32,332 nucleotides of DNA from a bacterium (GTDB taxonomy: Bacteria; Krumholzibacteriota; Krumholzibacteriia; G020349025): positions 1 through 32,332 of the forward strand of contig JANLSU010000016.1 in the NCBI GenBank assembly GCA_031362565.1, written 5' to 3'. A program made the position numbers and the translations under genes. Positions 1 through 25,210 of the stretch are shown in pieces. How positions within the stretch are numbered: position 1 is the first letter of the stretch; each line of letters opens with the position of its first letter. Below the pieces are notes generated by a model. That model saw only the letters and a program-made list of their open reading frames with translations, searched no databases and was not told where the DNA came from.

Positions 1-1
1 C

Positions 2-1699
2 CGCGAGCCGTACGGAGTCCCCGACCACCGTAACGGCTCGCGACGCAGCCAACTCGAGACGCAAAAGCCCCAGAGACCGCAGTCCCTCGTCGGCACCCTG
101 CACCACGACATCGCCGAAGCGCGTCCGTTGCAGAGCGACGAGGTCGGTCAAACGTTCCGGCGCGATCCAGAGTCCGCCAGCTTGGAGGGTGGGGTTCCGC
201 GGGAGGCCCTCCAGCCGGCGGGAAATTTCGAAGAGTTGACGAACCCGAGGTTCATCTTGATAGGCACGGCGCAAGCGCGGCGAGCGATCGAGTGCTTGCC
301 ACACATCACCGGTGCCCTCGGTTCGCAGGTCTTCGAGCAACGTGTCCAACGTGCCACGCTCGAATTCCAAACCATCGGCCACCGCACGCAGGATGCCGCG
401 CGTCGAGAACAAGGGACGATGCGCAGCGCGTGCCGCGCGCTCGGGTCCGAAGTGCCGCAAGATGTCACGGACCAGTGCGTCGCGGTGCCGGTGTGCAACA
501 TCGAACTCGAAGGCGGGAATCCCACGCCGCTGCCGCGACAAGAAGCGATCGAACTCGAGTCCGTGGGCCAACGGATCGATCTCGGTGATTCCAGCGGTGT
601 AACACACAAGGCTGCCCGCCGCGGCGCCGCGCCCTGGCCCGAGGGGGATCCCCGCAGACCGAGCCCGCCGCACAACGTCCTGCACGATGAGAAGACCGCT
701 TGCCAGCTCTGTCTCCTCGATGACCGCAAGCTCGTGGGTGAGACGGTTTCGGACCGCGACGGGCAGGTCGTCGGCACACATTCCAAAGAGCCGTGTCGCG
801 CCGCGTTCGGTTTCGCGGCGCAGTTCATCCAAGGCCCCACGTCCGGATGCGGAAGCGCCGCGGAATGGCTGCACACGACCGAGATCCATGTCGACTTGGC
901 AGAGTTCGGCAACGACGTTGGTATTGTCCAACGCCTCCGGCAGGTCGCGGAACAGAGTCCGCATCTCGACGTCGCTGCGAAGCGGCGCGGCACTGCCTCC
1001 TGCAGAGCCGTCGCTTCGGCCGCCCAGCCGCCGCAACACCGCATAGGCTTCGGCATCGTCGGCTTCCAGGTAGCGCACGTCACAAATTCCGACGAGTGGA
1101 ACGTTGAGGGTGCGGGCCAGATGGACGAGGCCGCGCTCCACTTCCGGATCACTCGCGCCACCACGTTGAACGCGAATGAAATAGCCATCGGCGCCGAAGC
1201 GGTTGCGCAACCACTTCGCCATGCTGATGGCACCCGCTTCCCCGTGGGCCGCGAGTGCACGCGTCACGGGCCCGTCGAGCCCGCCATCCAAGGCCACGAC
1301 ACCGGCCGCGAACTCCTCGAGATCCTGAAACCCGACGCGGGGCTCGGCGTTTCCCTGCACGCCGGGCAAGATCTCGAGGTGGGCGCGGCTGGTGAGCCGC
1401 AACAAGTTGCGCAACCCGGTTTCGTTGCGCGCCAACAGTTGAAGGGCAGCAAAACCGCCGTCCCAAGGGGCGCGCGCCGGAATGTCGGGTTGGACGTGAA
1501 CAGTCACGCCGAGCAGCGGCCGCACGCCCGCCGCCCGTGCCGCTATAAAGAAGGGCACGAGCCCGTGGGTCGCATTGAGATCGGCGATGCCAACCGCCGG
1601 CAGACGCAAGTCCCGAGCGCGTTCGACCAAAGGTTCGACGCGACACATCCCGTCCAGGAAGCCGTATTCGGTGCGCACGCCAAGTGGGACGTAGACCAC
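2..1699 (-). CDS. dnaE: DNA polymerase III alpha subunit (DnaE)-family protein, PHP + palm/thumb region, runs off the left edge; catalytic motifs degenerate
   Basis: Not in the ORF track because it has no stop in the window. GTG at 1699 follows AGGAG, and the frame is open to base 2. Hand translation gives MVYVPLGVRTEYGFLDG..GIADLN..GVRPLLG..LLARNETGLRNL..PLVGICDVRY..GIPLGPGRGAAAGSLVCYTAGITEIDPLAHGLEFDRFL..LEGLPRNPTLQAGGLWIAPERLTDLV..LGLLRLEL, colinear with DnaE. Confidence 0.9.
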   Translation of the reverse strand, partial: MVYVPLGVRTEYGFLDGMCRVEPLVERARDLRLPAVGIADLNATHGLVPFFIAARAAGVRPLLGVTVHVQPDIPARAPWDGGFAALQLLARNETGLRNLLRLTSRAHLEILPGVQGNAEPRVGFQDLEEFAAGVVALDGGLDGPVTRALAAHGEAGAISMAKWLRNRFGADGYFIRVQRGGASDPEVERGLVHLARTLNVPLVGICDVRYLEADDAEAYAVLRRLGGRSDGSAGGSAAPLRSDVEMRTLFRDLPEALDNTNVVAELCQVDMDLGRVQPFRGASASGRGALDELRRETERGATRLFGMCADDLPVAVRNRLTHELAVIEETELASGLLIVQDVVRRARSAGIPLGPGRGAAAGSLVCYTAGITEIDPLAHGLEFDRFLSRQRRGIPAFEFDVAHRHRDALVRDILRHFGPERAARAAHRPLFSTRGILRAVADGLEFERGTLDTLLEDLRTEGTGDVWQALDRSPRLRRAYQDEPRVRQLFEISRRLEGLPRNPTLQAGGLWIAPERLTDLVALQRTRFGDVVVQGADEGLRSLGLLRLELAASRAVTVVGDSVRLA

Positions 1700-1844
1700 G
1701 GTGCTCTCCTAGTTTGGGTCGTTCCCGCTGTGCCCGCCGGTGTCAGTCTCAGCGTCTTCCCGCCTCGACCCTGATCACTCTGGCTTGGCCTGCAGGTGGG
1801 CGGCCCCGGGTTGAACTCGACGTCAGCAATGGGCTGACAGACGA

Positions 1845-1873
1845 ATAGTAGGGAACGGACGTTTAGGTGTCAA
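1845..1873 (-). promoter_or_regulatory. sigma70-type promoter for the dnaE-like gene
   Basis: Minus strand TTGACA (1873-1868), 17 nt spacer, TACTAT (1850-1845). The spacer contains GAAC-GGAC-GTTT (1853-1864). Confidence 0.7.
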
Positions 1874-2063: not shown

Positions 2064-3611
2064 TCAGACCGGTCGCAGCACGAAGCGATGCACGCGGATG
2101 CCCACGAACGGCGTCATTTCTTCCGACAGCGCCCGCACCCGGAGCGCCTTCCGCAGCGCCCCCTTGGGGTCGATCGCTTCGGGACGGCATTCGAAGTACC
2201 AGAGCACGCCACCGGCCGGTGCGAAGGCTTGGACATAGCGCGTCGCCGCATCGAGGTCCGCAAATGCGGCGGCCGGCGGATGCACCGGCCTGGCGCCCAG
2301 GTCGCGGTAGTAGCTGCGCATCGCAAGCGTCAGCGAGATCTGCACGACTGGATCCTCGGGCCCCGCGTGGGTCGCGACATAGTGCACGGCGCCTCGGGCA
2401 TCGTCGCGTCCGTAGCGCGGCATGAACAAATAGTTCGCACACGACCACAGGCTTGCCACGCATGCCGCCGCGACCGCGACCGCCCGCAGGCGCCGCGGCA
2501 ACACCTGCCATCCCGCCACTACCATCAACAGGAAGGCCGGCACGGCGACCGACAAGTACCGCACGTTGTAGGGCTTGACGTTGGTCGCCGCCAACCACAC
2601 CGTCCAACCGCACGTCACGAGCGCCGGCACCAGCAACAGTCCCCGCCCGCGCCGTTCGCGCCACAGGCCGGCGGCAAACGGCACCCCGAACCCCAGCAAC
2701 ACGAGAAGGAGCGCCGGCATCGACCGCGGCGCGGCCGCCGCCGCCGGATTCAGACGCAGCTCCTCTAATGTAGGACCGAGGCTGTACCCCGCGGCGAAGG
2801 CAAACGCCGTGTACGGCAACGCCAGCGGATGCAGGGTCGTCGCGCCGCGCAGCGGTTCCTTGGAGCCGAAATCGGATTCGACCCCCACCAGGCGCTCCGG
2901 ATGCACCTGGTGTTTGATTTGCCAGGCGTACGGCACGAGCGTAAACGCCAGAACGGCATGCGCGACACACCAGATGACGAGAGCGCGACGATTGCGCCGC
3001 ACGACCCACAGACCCCACGCCCCCAAACCAATCGTGAAGAAGAGCCCATTCAGATTGCTGAGGATGCCGGCCAGTTCCGCCAGCACGACGACTACCCCAC
3101 GTCCGACCGACTGCCGCTGCATGAAACGCCACGCCGCCAGCAGTGTCAGGATCGCGAACAAAATGCTGCAGGAGTAATTGCGGCACTCCTGCGAGTAATA
3201 GAGCGCGAACGGCGAGACCGTGAGCAAGGCCGCGGCACCCAGCCCCGCCCGCTCGCCCCACAGAGCGCGTCCCAGGAGTCCGATCGCCGGCACCGCCAGC
3301 GCCCCCGCCAGGACCGAAGGAAAGCGCAAACTCGCTTCGCTCTCGGACACCCGGCTCGCGAGCCAAATCGCCACCGCATGTAGCGGTCCGTGAATATCAC
3401 CCAGGAGCGTTCCGAAACCGAACTTGTCGATCTCACCGATCCAGGCATAGGACAGGACTTCGTCGATCCAAAAACTCTGGGCGCCGAGCCGCACGCACCG
3501 CAGCACGAATGCGACAATCGACAAGGCCAGCAGTCCGTAAACGAAACGCCGCGCCGCGGCCGTTGAAACTGCCGGGCGCGACGCGTCGACGTTGAGTTCC
3601 ACCTGTGACAT
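2064..3611 (-). CDS. GT-C fold membrane glycosyltransferase (GT39/ArnT/PMT-like)
   Basis: LGAQSFWIDE, DIHGPLH, SEASLRFPSVLAG and YYSQECRNY motifs with many TM segments. Start ATG 3611 has GGAG upstream; ATG 3650 is an alternative. Confidence 0.85.
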   Translation of the reverse strand: MSQVELNVDASRPAVSTAAARRFVYGLLALSIVAFVLRCVRLGAQSFWIDEVLSYAWIGEIDKFGFGTLLGDIHGPLHAVAIWLASRVSESEASLRFPSVLAGALAVPAIGLLGRALWGERAGLGAAALLTVSPFALYYSQECRNYSCSILFAILTLLAAWRFMQRQSVGRGVVVVLAELAGILSNLNGLFFTIGLGAWGLWVVRRNRRALVIWCVAHAVLAFTLVPYAWQIKHQVHPERLVGVESDFGSKEPLRGATTLHPLALPYTAFAFAAGYSLGPTLEELRLNPAAAAAPRSMPALLLVLLGFGVPFAAGLWRERRGRGLLLVPALVTCGWTVWLAATNVKPYNVRYLSVAVPAFLLMVVAGWQVLPRRLRAVAVAAACVASLWSCANYLFMPRYGRDDARGAVHYVATHAGPEDPVVQISLTLAMRSYYRDLGARPVHPPAAAFADLDAATRYVQAFAPAGGVLWYFECRPEAIDPKGALRKALRVRALSEEMTPFVGIRVHRFVLRPV

Positions 3612-3812
3612 GCGCACGATGCTCCGAGGCTTGAATCCCACCTCGAACATACAGGAAGCCCGGGACTGGATTCCAACCCTTCTCCCAAAGGGTACCCACG
3701 CGCGGATCCAAGATCCGCTTTCGATGCACCGTCACCGCTGGTACCCTCGGCCGTTCATCGCGCCTTCGACGCGAACCAAGCTTGGGCAAGAACAGCCAGA
3801 TCCGGAATTGCC

Positions 3813-13017: not shown

Positions 13018-13094
13018 TGGTGGGCCGCCCGGGACTCGAACCCGGCACCACCTGCTTAAAAGGCAGATGCTCTAACCTGATGAGCTAGCGGCCC
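13018..13094 (-). tRNA. tRNA-Lys(UUU)
   Basis: GGGCCGC-TA-GCTC..GAGC-A-TCTGC-CT[TTT]AA-GCAGG-TGGTG-CCGGG-TTCGAGT-CCCGG-GCGGCCC-A-CCA, a 77 nt cloverleaf with encoded CCA. Confidence 0.97.
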
Positions 13095-21492: not shown

Positions 21493-21524
21493 TCGCGCTG
21501 CCGCGCCGGGCCGCGCCGGATGCG

Positions 21525-21589
21525 TTGACACACCCCGCACCAGGCCGCTACGATGCGAACCGTGGTTCAATTATCGAACAGCCGTTCGA
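21525..21589 (+). promoter_or_regulatory. sigma70 promoter plus tandem palindromic operators of the TetR-hcr-like operon
   Basis: TTGACA (21525-21530), 18 nt spacer, TACGAT (21549-21554); GAAC-cgtg-GTTC (21557-21568) and TCGAAC-agcc-GTTCGA (21574-21589). Confidence 0.65.
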
Positions 21590-22224
21590 AACCGAACGGT
21601 GTGGAACGCACCGCGCGCCGGCGCCATGCGCGGCGCCTCGAGATCTTGAGCGCCGCGGCGCGCGCCTTTCGAAGCCGTGGCTTCGCCGCGACCGGCATGC
21701 GCGAGATCGCTGCCGTCGCCGATCTTTCGCCCGCCAACCTGTATCACTATTTCCACGGCAAGCACGAGTTGCTGTATTTCTGCCAGGAGGCGTCGCTCGA
21801 ACTGCTGCTGGGAGCGCTGCGTGCGGCGCGCGATTCCAAAGCGCCGGCGGCAACGCAACTGCGCGCCGTGATCGAGGCACACGTGCGCTGCGTCTTGGGT
21901 GAGATGGAAGGCGCGACCGCGCACCTCGAAGTCGAGGATCTGCCGCCCGGACTCAAGCGCCGGATCGTCGCCAAGCGTGATCTCTACGAGCGCGGTATCC
22001 GACGGATTGTCGCCCGAGGCGTCGCCTCGGGTGAGTTCGTGGCCTGCGACGTCAAGCTCGTCACCCAGGCGATTCTCGGAGCCGTCAACTGGACCGCCCG
22101 CTGGTTCCGTCCGGAAGGGACGCGCTCACCGGACGAGGTCGGATCTGCATTCGCAATCTACTTGGTGCGCGGGCTCACCGCCGCACCGGCGCCATCGCGA
22201 CGCAACGGGAGGCAACGCACATGA
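21562..22224 (+). CDS. TetR/AcrR family regulator
   Basis: ILSAAARAFRSRGFAATGMREIAAVADLSPANLYHYFHGKHELL HTH; GAVNWTARWFRPEG C-terminus. ATG 21553 overlaps the -10 box, so GTG 21562 or GTG 21601 is more plausible. Confidence 0.92.
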   Translation: MVQLSNSRSKPNGVERTARRRHARRLEILSAAARAFRSRGFAATGMREIAAVADLSPANLYHYFHGKHELLYFCQEASLELLLGALRAARDSKAPAATQLRAVIEAHVRCVLGEMEGATAHLEVEDLPPGLKRRIVAKRDLYERGIRRIVARGVASGEFVACDVKLVTQAILGAVNWTARWFRPEGTRSPDEVGSAFAIYLVRGLTAAPAPSRRNGRQRT

Positions 22225-22751
22225 CGATCCCGAATGAGTCGAAGAAGTCGGCTCACATTACGTTCCAGTTGAACGGCGAGACCACCGAGGCGTCGTTCGC
22301 GCCGTACAAGACGCTGCTCGAGGTCCTGCGGGAGGACCTCGCCCTCACCGGCACCAAGCACGGCTGCGAATTGGGCGAATGCGGCGCCTGCGCCGTGCTG
22401 GTGGACGGCGAGCCCGTCTTGTCGTGCCTGGTCCTGGGACTCGAGTGCGAAGGGCGCGAAGTTCTGACCGTGGAAGGCATGGCAGAGGCCACCGACCTCC
22501 ATCCGCTGCAAACCGCGTTTGCGGACTTGGGGGGCGCGCAGTGCGGCTATTGCACGCCCGCCTTTCTCCTGACCGCCAAGGCGCTCCTCGACCGCAATCC
22601 CAACCCGTCGCGCGACGAGATTCGCGACGCGCTGTCGGGGGCACTCTGCCGCTGTACGGGGTATCTGCAGATTTTCGATGCCGTCGAATCGGCGATCGTG
22701 GCGATCGCGGCTCCCGGCGGCAACGGCTCTACACCTGGAGGCCGGCGATGA
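22221..22751 (+). CDS. hcrC: [2Fe-2S] subunit of a xanthine-oxidase-family enzyme (HcrC/CoxS-like)
   Basis: GTKHGCELGECGACAV..SC and QCGYCTP..LCRCTGY motifs; ATGA overlap with TetR. Confidence 0.85.
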   Translation: MTIPNESKKSAHITFQLNGETTEASFAPYKTLLEVLREDLALTGTKHGCELGECGACAVLVDGEPVLSCLVLGLECEGREVLTVEGMAEATDLHPLQTAFADLGGAQCGYCTPAFLLTAKALLDRNPNPSRDEIRDALSGALCRCTGYLQIFDAVESAIVAIAAPGGNGSTPGGRR

Positions 22752-25210
22752 GCGAGCGCCCGCACAACGTCATCGGGGTGCCGCGCCGGCGCGTCGACGC
22801 GCGCGCCAAGGTCACCGGCCAGACGCGGTTCGCGGACGACATCGCGTTGCCCCGCATGCTCTACTGCAAGCTCCTGCGCTCGCCGCATCCGCATGCGCGC
22901 ATCGTCCGCATCGACACGGCGCGCGCCGCGGCCCACCCGGGTGTGCATCTCGTTCTCACCGGCAAGGACCTGCCGATCGAATACGGCATCTTGCCCGTCA
23001 GCCAGGACGAACAGGCGCTCTGCGTCGACAAGGTGCGGTTCGTCGGTGATCCCATAGCTGCCGTCATCGCGCGCGAAGAACTTATCGCCTTCGAAGCGCT
23101 CGACCTCATCGACGTCGAGTACGAACCGCTCGCGACCATCGCCGACCCCTCGGATGCGCTCCAAGACGGCCTCGACCGCATCCATGAGTACGGCGAGGAA
23201 GGTAACGTGCACAAGCGCGTCGCCTTCGCATTCGGCGACACCGAAGAGGGTTTCGCGGCCGCCGACCACATCTTCGAAGACACGTTCTTCTACGAGGGCA
23301 ATACGCATCTCCCCATCGAACAGCATGCATCGATCGCCGCCGTCGATCCGGACGGCAAGGTGTGTATTTGGTCGAGCACCCAAACGCCGCATTACCTGCA
23401 CCGGGCATTGGCGAAAGTGCTCGAAATGTCGCCGGCGCACATCCGCGTCATTGCGACCCCGAACGGCGGCGGCTTCGGCGGCAAGAGCGATCCATTCAAC
23501 CATGAGATCGTGGTCGCCAAGGCCGCCCTGGTGCTCGGCCGGCCGGTGAAGATCTGCTTGAACCGCGAAGAGGTGTTCTATTGCCATCGTGGCCGCCACC
23601 CGGTTCTCATGCAGTTCAAGACCGGCGTCAAGAAGGACGGCACGATCACCGCCATGCACCTCAAGACGCTTATCGACGGTGGCGCGTACGGTTCCTATGG
23701 GGTCGCGAGCACCTTCTATACGGGGGCGCTGCAGACCGTCACCTACAAGGTGCCGCAGTACCGCTTCGAGGGTTGCCGCGTGTTCACCAACAAGCCGCCC
23801 TGCGGCCCCAAACGCGGCCATGGCACAGTACAACCGCGCTTCGGGCAAGAGATTCAGCTCGACAAGATCGCCGAACGCCTCGCCATCGACCCGGCCGAGC
23901 TGCGCTTGCGTATCGTCGAATCCCCGAATGCCGTCACCGCCAACTACATGCGGCTCGGCACCATCGGCCTCGCCGAATGCGTCCGCCGCGTCGTCGCCCG
24001 TTCGCAATGGGCGGAGAAGTTCCGGAAATTGCCGGAGGGCCGCGGCGTCGGCATCGCGTGCTCGGCGTATCTCTCGGGCGCCGGGCTGCCCATCTATTGG
24101 AACGCCATGCCGCACTCGGGCGTGCAAATCAAGCTCGACCGCGGCGGCGGTGTGACGGTGTTCTGCGGCGCGACGGAAATCGGCCAGGGTTCGGACGACG
24201 TGCTCGTCGCCTGCGTGGCCGAAGTGCTCGGCATCGAGCCTTTTGACATTCGTGCGGTGACCGGCGATACGGATCTCACGCCGGTCGACCTCGGTTCGTA
24301 TTCGAGCCGCGTCACACTCATGATGGGCAATGCGGCGATCCAGGCCGCGGAACGCGCCCGGGAGTTGCTGGCCGATGCCGTGGCGGCGCATCTCGAAGTG
24401 CCGAAGGGCCGGCTGGTGTTCGCCGCCCGGCGCGTCTTCGACAGCGAAGACCCGGATCGCGGCATCACGTTCCGCGAGGCCGTGTGCTTGGCGGAAGCCA
24501 AGTTCGGCACCCTGGGAACCGTCGGTTCCTACACGCCGCCGCGCTCCCCGGCGCTCTACAAAGGTGGCGGCGTTGGACCTTCGCCGACCTACTCGTATTC
24601 CGCGGCAGTCGTCGAGGTCGAGGTGGATCCGTCGACCGGCTGGATCGTCGTGCCGCGGGTGTGGATCGCGCACGACATCGGCCGGGCACTCAATCCAACC
24701 TTGGTGCGCGGCCAAGTCGAGGGCGGCGTGTACATGGGGCTTGGCGAAGCGCTCATGGAAGCACAGGTGTTCCGCCGCCTGCCGGCGAAGCTCTCGAACG
24801 CGCTCGTCCACAAGAACCCGTCGATGCTCGAGTACAAGAGCCCGACCGCACTCGACATGCCCGAGGTGTTCACCGACTTGATCGAGGACCCCGATCCGCG
24901 CGGGCCGTTCGGTGCCAAGGAAGTCGGCCAGGGGCCGCTCTTACCGATCATGCCGGCGGTCGCGAATGCGGTGTACGACGCGATCGGCGTCCGCATCGAC
25001 GAAGTGCCCATCACACCGGAAAAGATCGTCAAGGCGCTCGAGGCCAAAAAAGCCGGGCGTCCGGCGCGCTATGGGCCGGCGGGCTTCCCCACCGTGCAAT
25101 GGCCGGAGGCACTCCGCGTGCCGCCGCCGTGGGAAGGCGGCGACGGCCATGCGGTCAACGATCCGCCGCGCCCGCGCAGCGACAAGAAGGTCAAGGTGAT
25201 CCACACATGA
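22748..25210 (+). CDS. hcrA: Molybdopterin-binding subunit, 4-hydroxybenzoyl-CoA reductase alpha-like
   Basis: AKVTG, LRSPHPHARI, GGGFGGK, KRGHG, EIGQGS, GSYSSRVT, GQVEGG and GPFGAKEVGQG motifs; ATGA overlap. Substrate not certain. Confidence 0.8.
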   Translation: MSERPHNVIGVPRRRVDARAKVTGQTRFADDIALPRMLYCKLLRSPHPHARIVRIDTARAAAHPGVHLVLTGKDLPIEYGILPVSQDEQALCVDKVRFVGDPIAAVIAREELIAFEALDLIDVEYEPLATIADPSDALQDGLDRIHEYGEEGNVHKRVAFAFGDTEEGFAAADHIFEDTFFYEGNTHLPIEQHASIAAVDPDGKVCIWSSTQTPHYLHRALAKVLEMSPAHIRVIATPNGGGFGGKSDPFNHEIVVAKAALVLGRPVKICLNREEVFYCHRGRHPVLMQFKTGVKKDGTITAMHLKTLIDGGAYGSYGVASTFYTGALQTVTYKVPQYRFEGCRVFTNKPPCGPKRGHGTVQPRFGQEIQLDKIAERLAIDPAELRLRIVESPNAVTANYMRLGTIGLAECVRRVVARSQWAEKFRKLPEGRGVGIACSAYLSGAGLPIYWNAMPHSGVQIKLDRGGGVTVFCGATEIGQGSDDVLVACVAEVLGIEPFDIRAVTGDTDLTPVDLGSYSSRVTLMMGNAAIQAAERARELLADAVAAHLEVPKGRLVFAARRVFDSEDPDRGITFREAVCLAEAKFGTLGTVGSYTPPRSPALYKGGGVGPSPTYSYSAAVVEVEVDPSTGWIVVPRVWIAHDIGRALNPTLVRGQVEGGVYMGLGEALMEAQVFRRLPAKLSNALVHKNPSMLEYKSPTALDMPEVFTDLIEDPDPRGPFGAKEVGQGPLLPIMPAVANAVYDAIGVRIDEVPITPEKIVKALEAKKAGRPARYGPAGFPTVQWPEALRVPPPWEGGDGHAVNDPPRPRSDKKVKVIHT

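Follow-up and report, generated by a model that had tools for sequence, protein, structure and literature searches.

Can a bacterium keep a copy of its replicative polymerase after the active site has been dismantled, and if so, for what use? The question is raised by the first gene of a 32,332-nucleotide stretch of Krumholzibacteriota DNA (the window; contig JANLSU010000016.1 of assembly GCA_031362565.1, which is the start of contig C5 in our 5.4-Mb, 133-contig genome G000). On the minus strand at 2..1699, this stretch encodes the N-terminal 566 codons (PHP, palm and thumb) of a homolog of DnaE, the alpha subunit of DNA polymerase III (Pol III alpha), in a frame that opens with GTG at 1699 and is still open at the window edge. 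We refer to this dead DnaE paralog, and to the clade around it, as psiA. The reading that we favor, with modest confidence, is that psiA is a non-catalytic, SOS-linked, clamp-binding derivative of DnaE that works like ImuB, the inactive polymerase of the bacterial mutasome.

The piece in the window matches the Pfam families PHP (residues 8-179, 1.2e-26) and DNA_pol3_alpha (residues 292-548, 3.1e-52); the open frames antisense to it are the usual artefact of a 65% G+C content. An AlphaFold (AF2) model of the 566 residues has a predicted local distance difference test score (pLDDT) of 87.1 and a predicted template-modeling score (pTM) of 0.87, and Foldseek matches it to the Taq and E. coli Pol III alpha structures with TMq values of 0.84-0.87 and E-values of about 1e-42 to 5e-44 (TMq 0.86 for the Taq entries 4iqj and 2hpi; 0.83-0.87 over the matched Pol III alpha structures). 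The model thus predicts that the N-terminal piece keeps the polymerase fold, as had been supposed in a first-pass annotation made from the bare sequence.

To locate the catalytic positions, we aligned the protein residue by residue to E. coli Pol III alpha (PDB 2hnh), in which we take D401, D403 and D555 to be the catalytic carboxylates. The PDxDxD motif is degenerate and reads P395-A-F-E-F-D400 (500..517, minus strand, as are all psiA features below unless stated), which places A396 at D401, E398 at D403 and D400 at D405, and the position of the third carboxylate, D555, is occupied by E549 (codon at 53..55) within the sequence GLLRLELAA. The nucleotide-contacting GS motif, GRGSGAGS in E. coli, has become GRGAAAGS within GPGRGAAAGS (residues 354-363; 611..640), with Ala359 in place of its serine. 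Likewise, KHAGG has become LQAGG, with Q506 (182..184) at the position of H511, and K553 is replaced by R547. In the PHP domain, G7-V8-R9 (1673..1681) stands where the HxH metal ligands would be, TDH reads ADL and D-x-H reads DVR. The first-pass annotation had called these same changes (PAFEFD, glutamate at D555, GRGAAA, QAGG and the missing PHP ligands), and the alignments bear them out.

We searched a profile of the psiA family against 1.84 billion protein representatives and inspected the best 150, among which all canonical DnaEs (129/129) carry S-D-D-D-H-K-D at S364/D401/D403/D405/H511/K553/D555. The D401/D403/D555 triad deviates in 21 of these 150 representatives, and all 21 belong to the psiA family. 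Taking both pieces of the window protein together (the second lies on another contig, C78, and is described below), 35 of the 59 columns that are at least 97% identical across 130 canonical DnaE rows are retained, and the lost columns cluster in the PHP ligands, the palm site and the finger motifs. In the C78 piece, the finger motifs have degenerated from VGVFQLES to VGIPQFDG, from RPGP to RAGA, from YQEQ to YPEQ and from FNKSH to FDRAH, and the PHP HxH is gone in every psiA member. Conserved catalytic residues have been lost in psiA, and from these residues the protein would appear to be catalytically inactive.

The triad has not settled on a single replacement. Over 12 psiA members besides the window protein, position 401 is glutamate in eight, alanine in two, glycine in one and aspartate in one; position 403 is aspartate in seven and glutamate in five; position 405 is aspartate in eight and glutamate in four; and position 555 is histidine in six, glutamate in three, aspartate in two and valine in one. 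The triad is degenerate across the clade, the identity of its residues drifts by lineage, and the relative P0002 has it intact. Since P0002 keeps the triad, the ancestor of the clade was probably still active, with catalysis lost more than once. A metagenome scan with P0002 for its gene context returned 99 pattern matches, none of which was confirmed.

As psiA is cut by a contig end, it could be a decaying pseudogene or an artefact of assembly at that end, and two further features would suit such an explanation, namely that the contig ends differ at 8 of their 63 overlapping bases and that the clade evolves about three times faster than DnaE1. The remaining evidence already contradicts it, and we consider it virtually untenable. 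Using tblastn with the genome's own DnaE, we traced the C-terminal half to another contig of this assembly: at the end of C78, a frame of 548 codons with finger (1e-25), HHH_6 (8e-20) and OB (1e-7) domains ends in a stop codon and is directly followed by the genome's main lexA. The end of C78 and the start of C5 overlap by 63 nucleotides, gapless and in frame with the 8 mismatches, a pattern suggestive of a bubble between strains at which the assembly broke. Window positions 1-1084 are covered by a DNA contig of run X1 that extends 3767 nucleotides beyond the window start, toward the rest of psiA. Moreover, metagenome contig L072 carries a full-length homolog of 1097 residues, which shares 69% identity with the window piece and 56% with that of C78, in the gene order glycosyltransferase, psiA, lexA, tRNA-Glu, DinB_2. 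Because the two pieces overlap by about 20 residues on this homolog, psiA of the window genome is about 1094 residues long, and its roughly 1094 codons, in two pieces, contain no stop. The gene is intact and is not broken at the window edge; the frame that the first-pass annotation had seen run off the contig continues beyond it, in frame and without a stop.

Conservation among relatives argues against decay as well. Searching 40 relatives, we found psiA orthologs in 5 of the 6 genomes of the same family, with 44-49% identity and intact frames of 1008-1076 residues; the sixth genome, which has no ortholog, is 71% complete. Counting the L072 homolog, intact orthologs span 44-69% identity and share the same synteny. 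The clade is restricted to this one family among 208 genomes of the phylum, and in a collection of 5.8 billion proteins it comprises 10 clusters, one of them labelled Candidatus Latescibacterota, with canonical DnaEs as the next scores. In a tree of the N-terminal 568 columns (52 rows, quick IQ-TREE, for which the tool warned of long branches), psiA forms a clade with support of 100, apart from DnaE1 (99) and DnaE2 (97). The rate difference mentioned above is seen on the path between the G001 and G006 genomes, which is 0.166 for psiA and 0.06 for DnaE1.

The ratio of nonsynonymous to synonymous substitution rates (dN/dS; pairwise Nei-Gojobori) for psiA is 0.227 between G001 and G006 (dS 0.52, 958 codons), 0.235 between the window and L072 (dS 0.98) and 0.28-0.34 for more distant pairs. 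For comparison, it is 0.16-0.20 for DnaE1, in frames that took in some upstream read-through, and 0.06 for lexA. Values of 0.23-0.34, far from the ratio near 1 that a decaying copy would show, together with a conserved promoter (below), support purifying selection on psiA rather than pseudogene decay. By domain (G001 versus G006), dN/dS rises from 0.14 in PHP through 0.20 in palm and thumb, 0.22 in the fingers and 0.33 in the beta-binding region to 0.46 in the tail, and constraint on the protein is thus strongest in its dead PHP domain.

The genome carries normal C-family polymerases elsewhere, among them the separate canonical dnaE whose presence the first-pass annotation had proposed to confirm. 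Contig C85 encodes a canonical DnaE1 of 1178 residues that scores 1417.7 bits with the DnaE1 model NF004226 (cut-off 1002) and has intact motifs (HxH, GRGSAAGS, PDIDIDF, HAAG and KMDFLG). Contig C89 (L005:7228-13772, plus strand) carries a classical mutagenesis cassette composed of a second lexA, a RecA/ImuA-like gene, a Y-family (ImuB-like) gene and dnaE2; this DnaE2 scores 1343.9 bits against a cut-off of 939 and keeps PDxDxD, GRGS and the D555 equivalent, in agreement with the earlier statement that DnaE2 enzymes retain the triad. For psiA, the best-scoring family is also NF004226, at 632-773 bits, yet the full-length L072 protein (631.9) and the G003 ortholog (772.7) both fall below its cut-off, as they do for the DnaE2/ImuC model NF004225 (480 and 556 bits, cut-off 939), and only the superfamily model TIGR00594 (cut-off 434) is passed, with 554 and 726 bits. 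With this score, and with PF02811, PF07733, PF17657 and PF14579 matched over both pieces, psiA belongs to the C-family superfamily, and by the curated models it is neither DnaE1 nor DnaE2.

The C terminus differs from that of the replicase. The match to the profile runs out at position 1068 of 1146 in the C78 piece and at 1065 of 1146 in L072, while DnaE1 of the genome covers 5-1144, and since coverage stops there, the tau-binding region is absent from psiA. One role that had been proposed for the protein, that of a tau-binding scaffold, is therefore not supported. The OB fold is retained in G000, P0006 and P0007. The orthologs of G001, G003-G006, P0009 and P0010 are without it and share a conserved end of the RLWVVGRIRSR type, which aligns to the first OB-fold strand of G000, P0006 and P0007.

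What psiA does retain is a motif of the clamp-binding type. In the variable linker that follows the HhH domain, Q-[LM]-x-[LF]-x-[FL] is present in all aligned psiA members (13/13), as QLAFDF at residues 349-354 of the C78 piece in the window genome and as QLELGL in L072. Over about 35 positions to each side, the best of the other columns agree in 8 of the 13 at most. The counterpart of the motif in the genome's DnaE1 is QTSLFG, the canonical internal clamp motif, with which it aligns; it also resembles what we take to be the published clamp-binding consensus, QL[SD]LF or QLxLxL. In the parts of a recent survey available to us, the clamp-binding motif is quoted as 'QxxLF' (PMC12926913). On the strength of this resemblance, psiA is a candidate binder of the beta clamp.

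The second link to damage tolerance is the position of the gene. In all distinct psiA loci (7/7: G000, joined from C5 and C78, then G001, G003, G004, G005, G006 and L072), the order is a PMT_2-type glycosyltransferase gene, psiA and lexA, and in all seven lexA is followed by tRNA-Glu(UUC). A tRNA-Lys(UUU) gene precedes the glycosyltransferase in five of them (L018, L020, L021, L022 and L072). In the window, the upstream gene is a PMT_2/STT3-type membrane glycosyltransferase gene (2064..3650, minus strand), identified by Pfam and by synteny in 5/5 orthologous loci and in L072. Given this arrangement, psiA may be SOS-induced.

The expression signals reported by the first-pass annotation, a good ribosome-binding site and a near-consensus promoter, are both found. 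The ribosome-binding site AGGAGAG (1710-1704, within 1700..1710) is set by a 6-nucleotide spacer from the GTG start codon (1699-1697), and the sigma-70-type promoter TTGACA-17-TACTAT (1845..1873) matches the consensus at 10 of 12 positions; no second site of the kind lies in 1600-2100, and 50 shuffles yielded a mean of 0.0. Upstream of psiA, TTGAC[TA]-17-TACTAT is conserved in 6/6 orthologous loci compared. Between the -10 box and the start codon lies a leader of about 145 nucleotides (1700..1844), conserved in the ortholog alignment; across the same 6/6 loci the leaders are about 130-148 nucleotides long and strongly conserved, with GTTGGCGTCGATCAACCC and AACCTGCAGACCA blocks. The leader may hold an operator or an RNA element. 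It has no match in Rfam, and alifold on six sequences gives an energy of -21.2 with a covariation term of +0.56, by which a structured RNA is unsupported. A 185-nucleotide metatranscriptome contig (run X17) spans window positions 1565-1742 with 4 differences; because it could derive from a relative or from DNA carry-over, we did not count it as psiA expression, and together with the conserved promoter it offers a weak hint that the gene is transcribed.

Is this gene an oddity of one family? In other families of the phylum, DnaE-like proteins whose sites are dead form another two clades, which we term psiB and psiC, and NCBI labels the members Candidatus Krumholzibacteriota or Krumholzibacteria. 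The psiB proteins (about 910-1010 residues; loci L023-L028) read, for example, PVVELL at PDxDxD and have V, Y, F or I at the D555 position; they retain the PHP HxH and a canonical clamp-type motif, QLSLFD. The psiC proteins (about 920-1190 residues; loci L026 and L029-L032) read, for example, xxEIQ at PDxDxD, keep the D555 position and carry the clamp-type motif QLELPF. By our own reading of the survey tables, psiB is found in 40/43 genomes of family f3, 8/8 of f7 and 1/1 of f9, and psiC in 20/23 genomes of f4 and 12/13 of f8. All three share one slot, in the order tRNA-Lys, psi, (lexA), tRNA-Glu, and on that ground they are positional orthologs of one old gene. In the tree they lie together on one side of a branch with support of 96, a grouping subject to the long-branch caveat. 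Upstream, purA is found in 4/5 psiC loci and in 1/5 psiB loci, and lexA lies directly 3' of psiC and overlaps it in 4/5 loci.

The slot has a different occupant in family f6, where no psi gene was found. There we observed a Y-family polymerase gene (IMS, 1e-43 to 1e-46), a protein of 470 residues with no Pfam match (L099:4767-6164, plus strand, G016; L100:4517-5953, plus strand, G031), lexA and tRNA-Glu. The 470-residue protein is present in 10/10 genomes of f6 and in 0/198 others of the phylum, and ends in QLELGL, QLPLGL or QLSFDL. Its nine-sequence profile is collinear only with the PHP-palm-thumb part of the psi profile (hhalign 86.6%, E 4.5e-6, 413 columns), in an alignment that ends on the strand holding the D555 position; a two-sequence profile gave an E-value of 0.2, and a PDB sequence search with the nine-sequence profile gave no match. 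The protein is likely, at moderate strength, a truncated PHP/palm remnant of a dead DnaE, and if this reading is right, selection keeps the dead PHP/palm module together with the clamp motif. In family f2 (91 genomes), the psi and f6 queries found nothing.

Two observations on these related loci may be recorded beside them. Upstream of psiC in L029 and L032, the -35-like and -10-like boxes of the psiC-lexA operon enclose the palindromes ATACATATGTAT and GCATACGTTTGTATGC, which are candidate LexA operators of the ATAC-N4-GTAT type. The slot of family f5 contains a Y-family polymerase gene, an open reading frame of about 200 residues and lexA (L098:1935-2546, plus strand, G010; L097:6800-7420, minus strand, G025); the N terminus of this frame reads QQILPF or RQIDLF, which is clamp-binding-like, and the L098 copy has no Pfam match.

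How might such a protein act? According to the reading that we favor, psiA would be made as part of the DNA-damage (SOS) lexA locus from its own strong promoter, and its Q-L-x-[LF]-x-[FL] motif and DNA-binding domains would let it dock, at primer ends, on the beta sliding clamp. Once bound, it would act without DNA synthesis, either as a competitor and brake of the replicase or as an adaptor that passes the clamp to translesion polymerases, with the dead PHP/palm module possibly serving as a partner-binding surface. The model for these roles is ImuB, described in the passages available to us as a dead Y-family polymerase of the ImuA-ImuB-DnaE2 mutasome that is thought to be a clamp-bound adaptor (PMC10421592, PMC11791113, PMC12926913). 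Like ImuB, psiA is a polymerase paralog without the catalytic carboxylates that is retained under selection; it also carries a motif of the clamp-binding type, a candidate site for the clamp, and lies in a LexA-linked locus, with lexA adjacent in 7/7 loci, where it may be under LexA control. Unlike ImuB, which has the Y-family fold, psiA has the C-family arrangement of PHP, palm, thumb, fingers, HhH and OB, and it adjoins lexA alone rather than imuA or dnaE2, the ImuB-like gene being elsewhere in the genome. The idea of an ImuB-like protein on a C-family scaffold, already voiced in the first-pass annotation, fits the place of psiA in the lexA locus.

Several observations weigh against this reading. 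The genome already has an ImuB (on C89), which makes a simple replacement of ImuB by psiA unlikely. The spacer from psiA to lexA contains another conserved block that resembles a promoter, TGGGCA-17-TATCGT; lexA thus appears to have its own conserved promoter and may be transcribed apart from psiA. No LexA operator motif shared by the psiA promoter, the psiA-lexA spacer and the regions upstream of lexA2 and recA was found by eye or by alignment, and lexA adjoins psiB in 0/5 loci. Turning to the active site, the earlier claim that all catalytic residues are substituted is correct for D401, D403 and D555 (now A, E and E) but overstated for the site as a whole: since two of the three substitutions are aspartate to glutamate and D400 is retained, E398, D400 and E549 leave three carboxylates there. 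Positions 403 and 405 are acidic in 13/13 psiA members examined, and P0002 retains not only D/D/D and D555 but also HAGG and GRGSAAGS. With acidic residues at the 403, 405 and 555 positions and GPGRG invariant across the clade, the site may bind metal or nucleotide, or even support weak catalysis.

Taken further, these features would make psiA a polymerase still, a very slow or error-prone SOS enzyme resembling a third DnaE2 and holding metal through E398, D400 and E549. Such an enzyme would suit the D or E always found at 403 and 405, the unvarying GPGRG, the canonical triad of P0002 and the full set of polymerase domains, OB included, kept in the window lineage, as well as the linkage to lexA, a typical trait of translesion polymerases (in f5 and f6 it is dinB that fills this slot). 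We nevertheless judge it quite unlikely, as none of the 129 canonical representatives shows so much as a D-to-E change at 401, 403 or 555, and psiA goes well beyond such changes, with alanine at 401 here and glycine, alanine or glutamate elsewhere, and with histidine (six members) or valine (one) at 555. The serine of the GS motif, H511, K553 and the finger residues (RAGA, YPEQ and FDRAH) are altered too, and the f6 homolog is without fingers altogether.

A different possibility accepts that psiA is non-catalytic and questions the clamp as its key partner. The PHP/palm module could instead bind LexA, RecA, ImuA/ImuB/DnaE2 or DnaE1 and tune SOS induction or mutasome assembly, leaving the Q-L motif secondary or vestigial. 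The strong constraint on PHP (dN/dS 0.14, versus 0.33-0.46 for the C-terminal parts), the overlap of psiC with lexA and the survival of PHP/palm in the f6 remnant are what such a role would lead one to expect. It accounts poorly, however, for Q-L-x-[LF]-x-[FL] being the sole conserved element of a variable linker and being kept even in the f6 remnant, psiB and psiC, and we hold it to be unlikely. A clamp-bound psiA that does not synthesize DNA remains our preferred account.

We also propose, tentatively and with somewhat less than even confidence, a broader view of the slot. In this proposal, the tRNA-Lys...lexA...tRNA-Glu interval would house, throughout a candidate phylum with Krumholzibacteriota/Latescibacterota labels, an ancient family of dead Pol III alpha paralogs in which catalysis was lost several times independently, and which in one family shrank to a PHP/palm stub with a clamp motif. 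With its members, the C family would gain its first pseudo-polymerases: clamp binders, made in the SOS response, that after DNA damage stall the replisome or remodel it as a replicase-shaped decoy or as a C-family counterpart of ImuB.

Comparison with the other known systems helps to place psiA. Like DnaE2/ImuC, it is an additional, non-essential DnaE that is linked to lexA, has a degenerate PHP domain and ends without a tau-binding tail, but it is without the intact triad, reaches 480 bits against a cut-off of 939 and falls in a separate clade (support of 100 versus 97). The order of its domains and the location of its internal clamp motif are those of DnaE1, from which it differs in scoring below the 1002-bit cut-off, in evolving about three times faster and in having lost its triad, PHP ligands and tau-binding region. 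A further parallel comes from bacterial PolX: in the passages seen of PMC12926913, some of these proteins persist although their polymerase active site is gone. There, according to the same passages, a conserved PHP exonuclease site explains the retention, unlike in psiA, whose PHP site is dead besides its polymerase site, leaving it without a known enzymatic site.

In the passages available to us, surveys of bacterial Pol III alpha homologs report inactive PHP domains and inactive PolY or PolX only (PMC3919608, PMC12926913), and the 2026 survey, which used complete representative genomes and discarded strongly diverged sequences, deals, for the C family, with PHP inactivation only (PMC12926913). 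Our full-text literature search yielded no account of a C-family homolog whose polymerase site is inactivated, although the survey supplements, outside the search, could list outliers; nor did the passages it returned, including those of PMC8565304, report a dnaE-like gene upstream of lexA. psiA, psiB and psiC appear to make up a hitherto undescribed family of dead DnaE paralogs that spans the phylum and is tied to lexA.

Dead polymerase paralogs that organize translesion synthesis are known for the Y family, in ImuB, and we found none for the C family. If psiA binds the clamp without synthesis, the scaffold of a replicase can be recycled into a regulator of the damage response, and psiA would be a natural tool for studying which contributions, catalysis aside, the alpha subunit makes to the replisome. 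Annotation is affected too: public records name the psi proteins 'DNA polymerase III subunit alpha' or 'PHP domain-containing protein', and such names can mislead counts of replicases in uncultured phyla.

Some smaller observations concern the neighborhood of psiA and the rest of the window. On C78 (L004:8972-9564, minus strand), lexA is followed by tRNA-Glu(UUC) and a DinB_2/DinB-family gene (damage-inducible, metal-hydrolase-like); a DinB_2 gene after tRNA-Glu is also found in L072 and not in the other psiA loci. The palindrome RAAC-N4-GTTY occurs six times in the window against 1.65 expected, once in the spacer of the psiA promoter (GAACGGACGTTT, 1853-1864, plus strand). We considered it as a LexA operator and rejected it, as the spacer site is not conserved in orthologs and tandem copies stand before a TetR gene. 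These copies lie at 21520-21620 (plus strand), where a TTGACA-17-TACGAT promoter is followed by the tandem palindromes GAACCGTGGTTC and GAACAGCCGTTC and by CGAACGGTGTGGAAC, at the start of the TetR-family gene (21553-22224), with a molybdopterin oxidoreductase gene (22379-25210) next; they are likely TetR operators. The 11-mer CGAACGGTGTG of this promoter region is also found upstream of lexA on C78. Finally, the only Rfam match in the window at the gathering threshold is one tRNA gene, at 13021-13094 on the minus strand.

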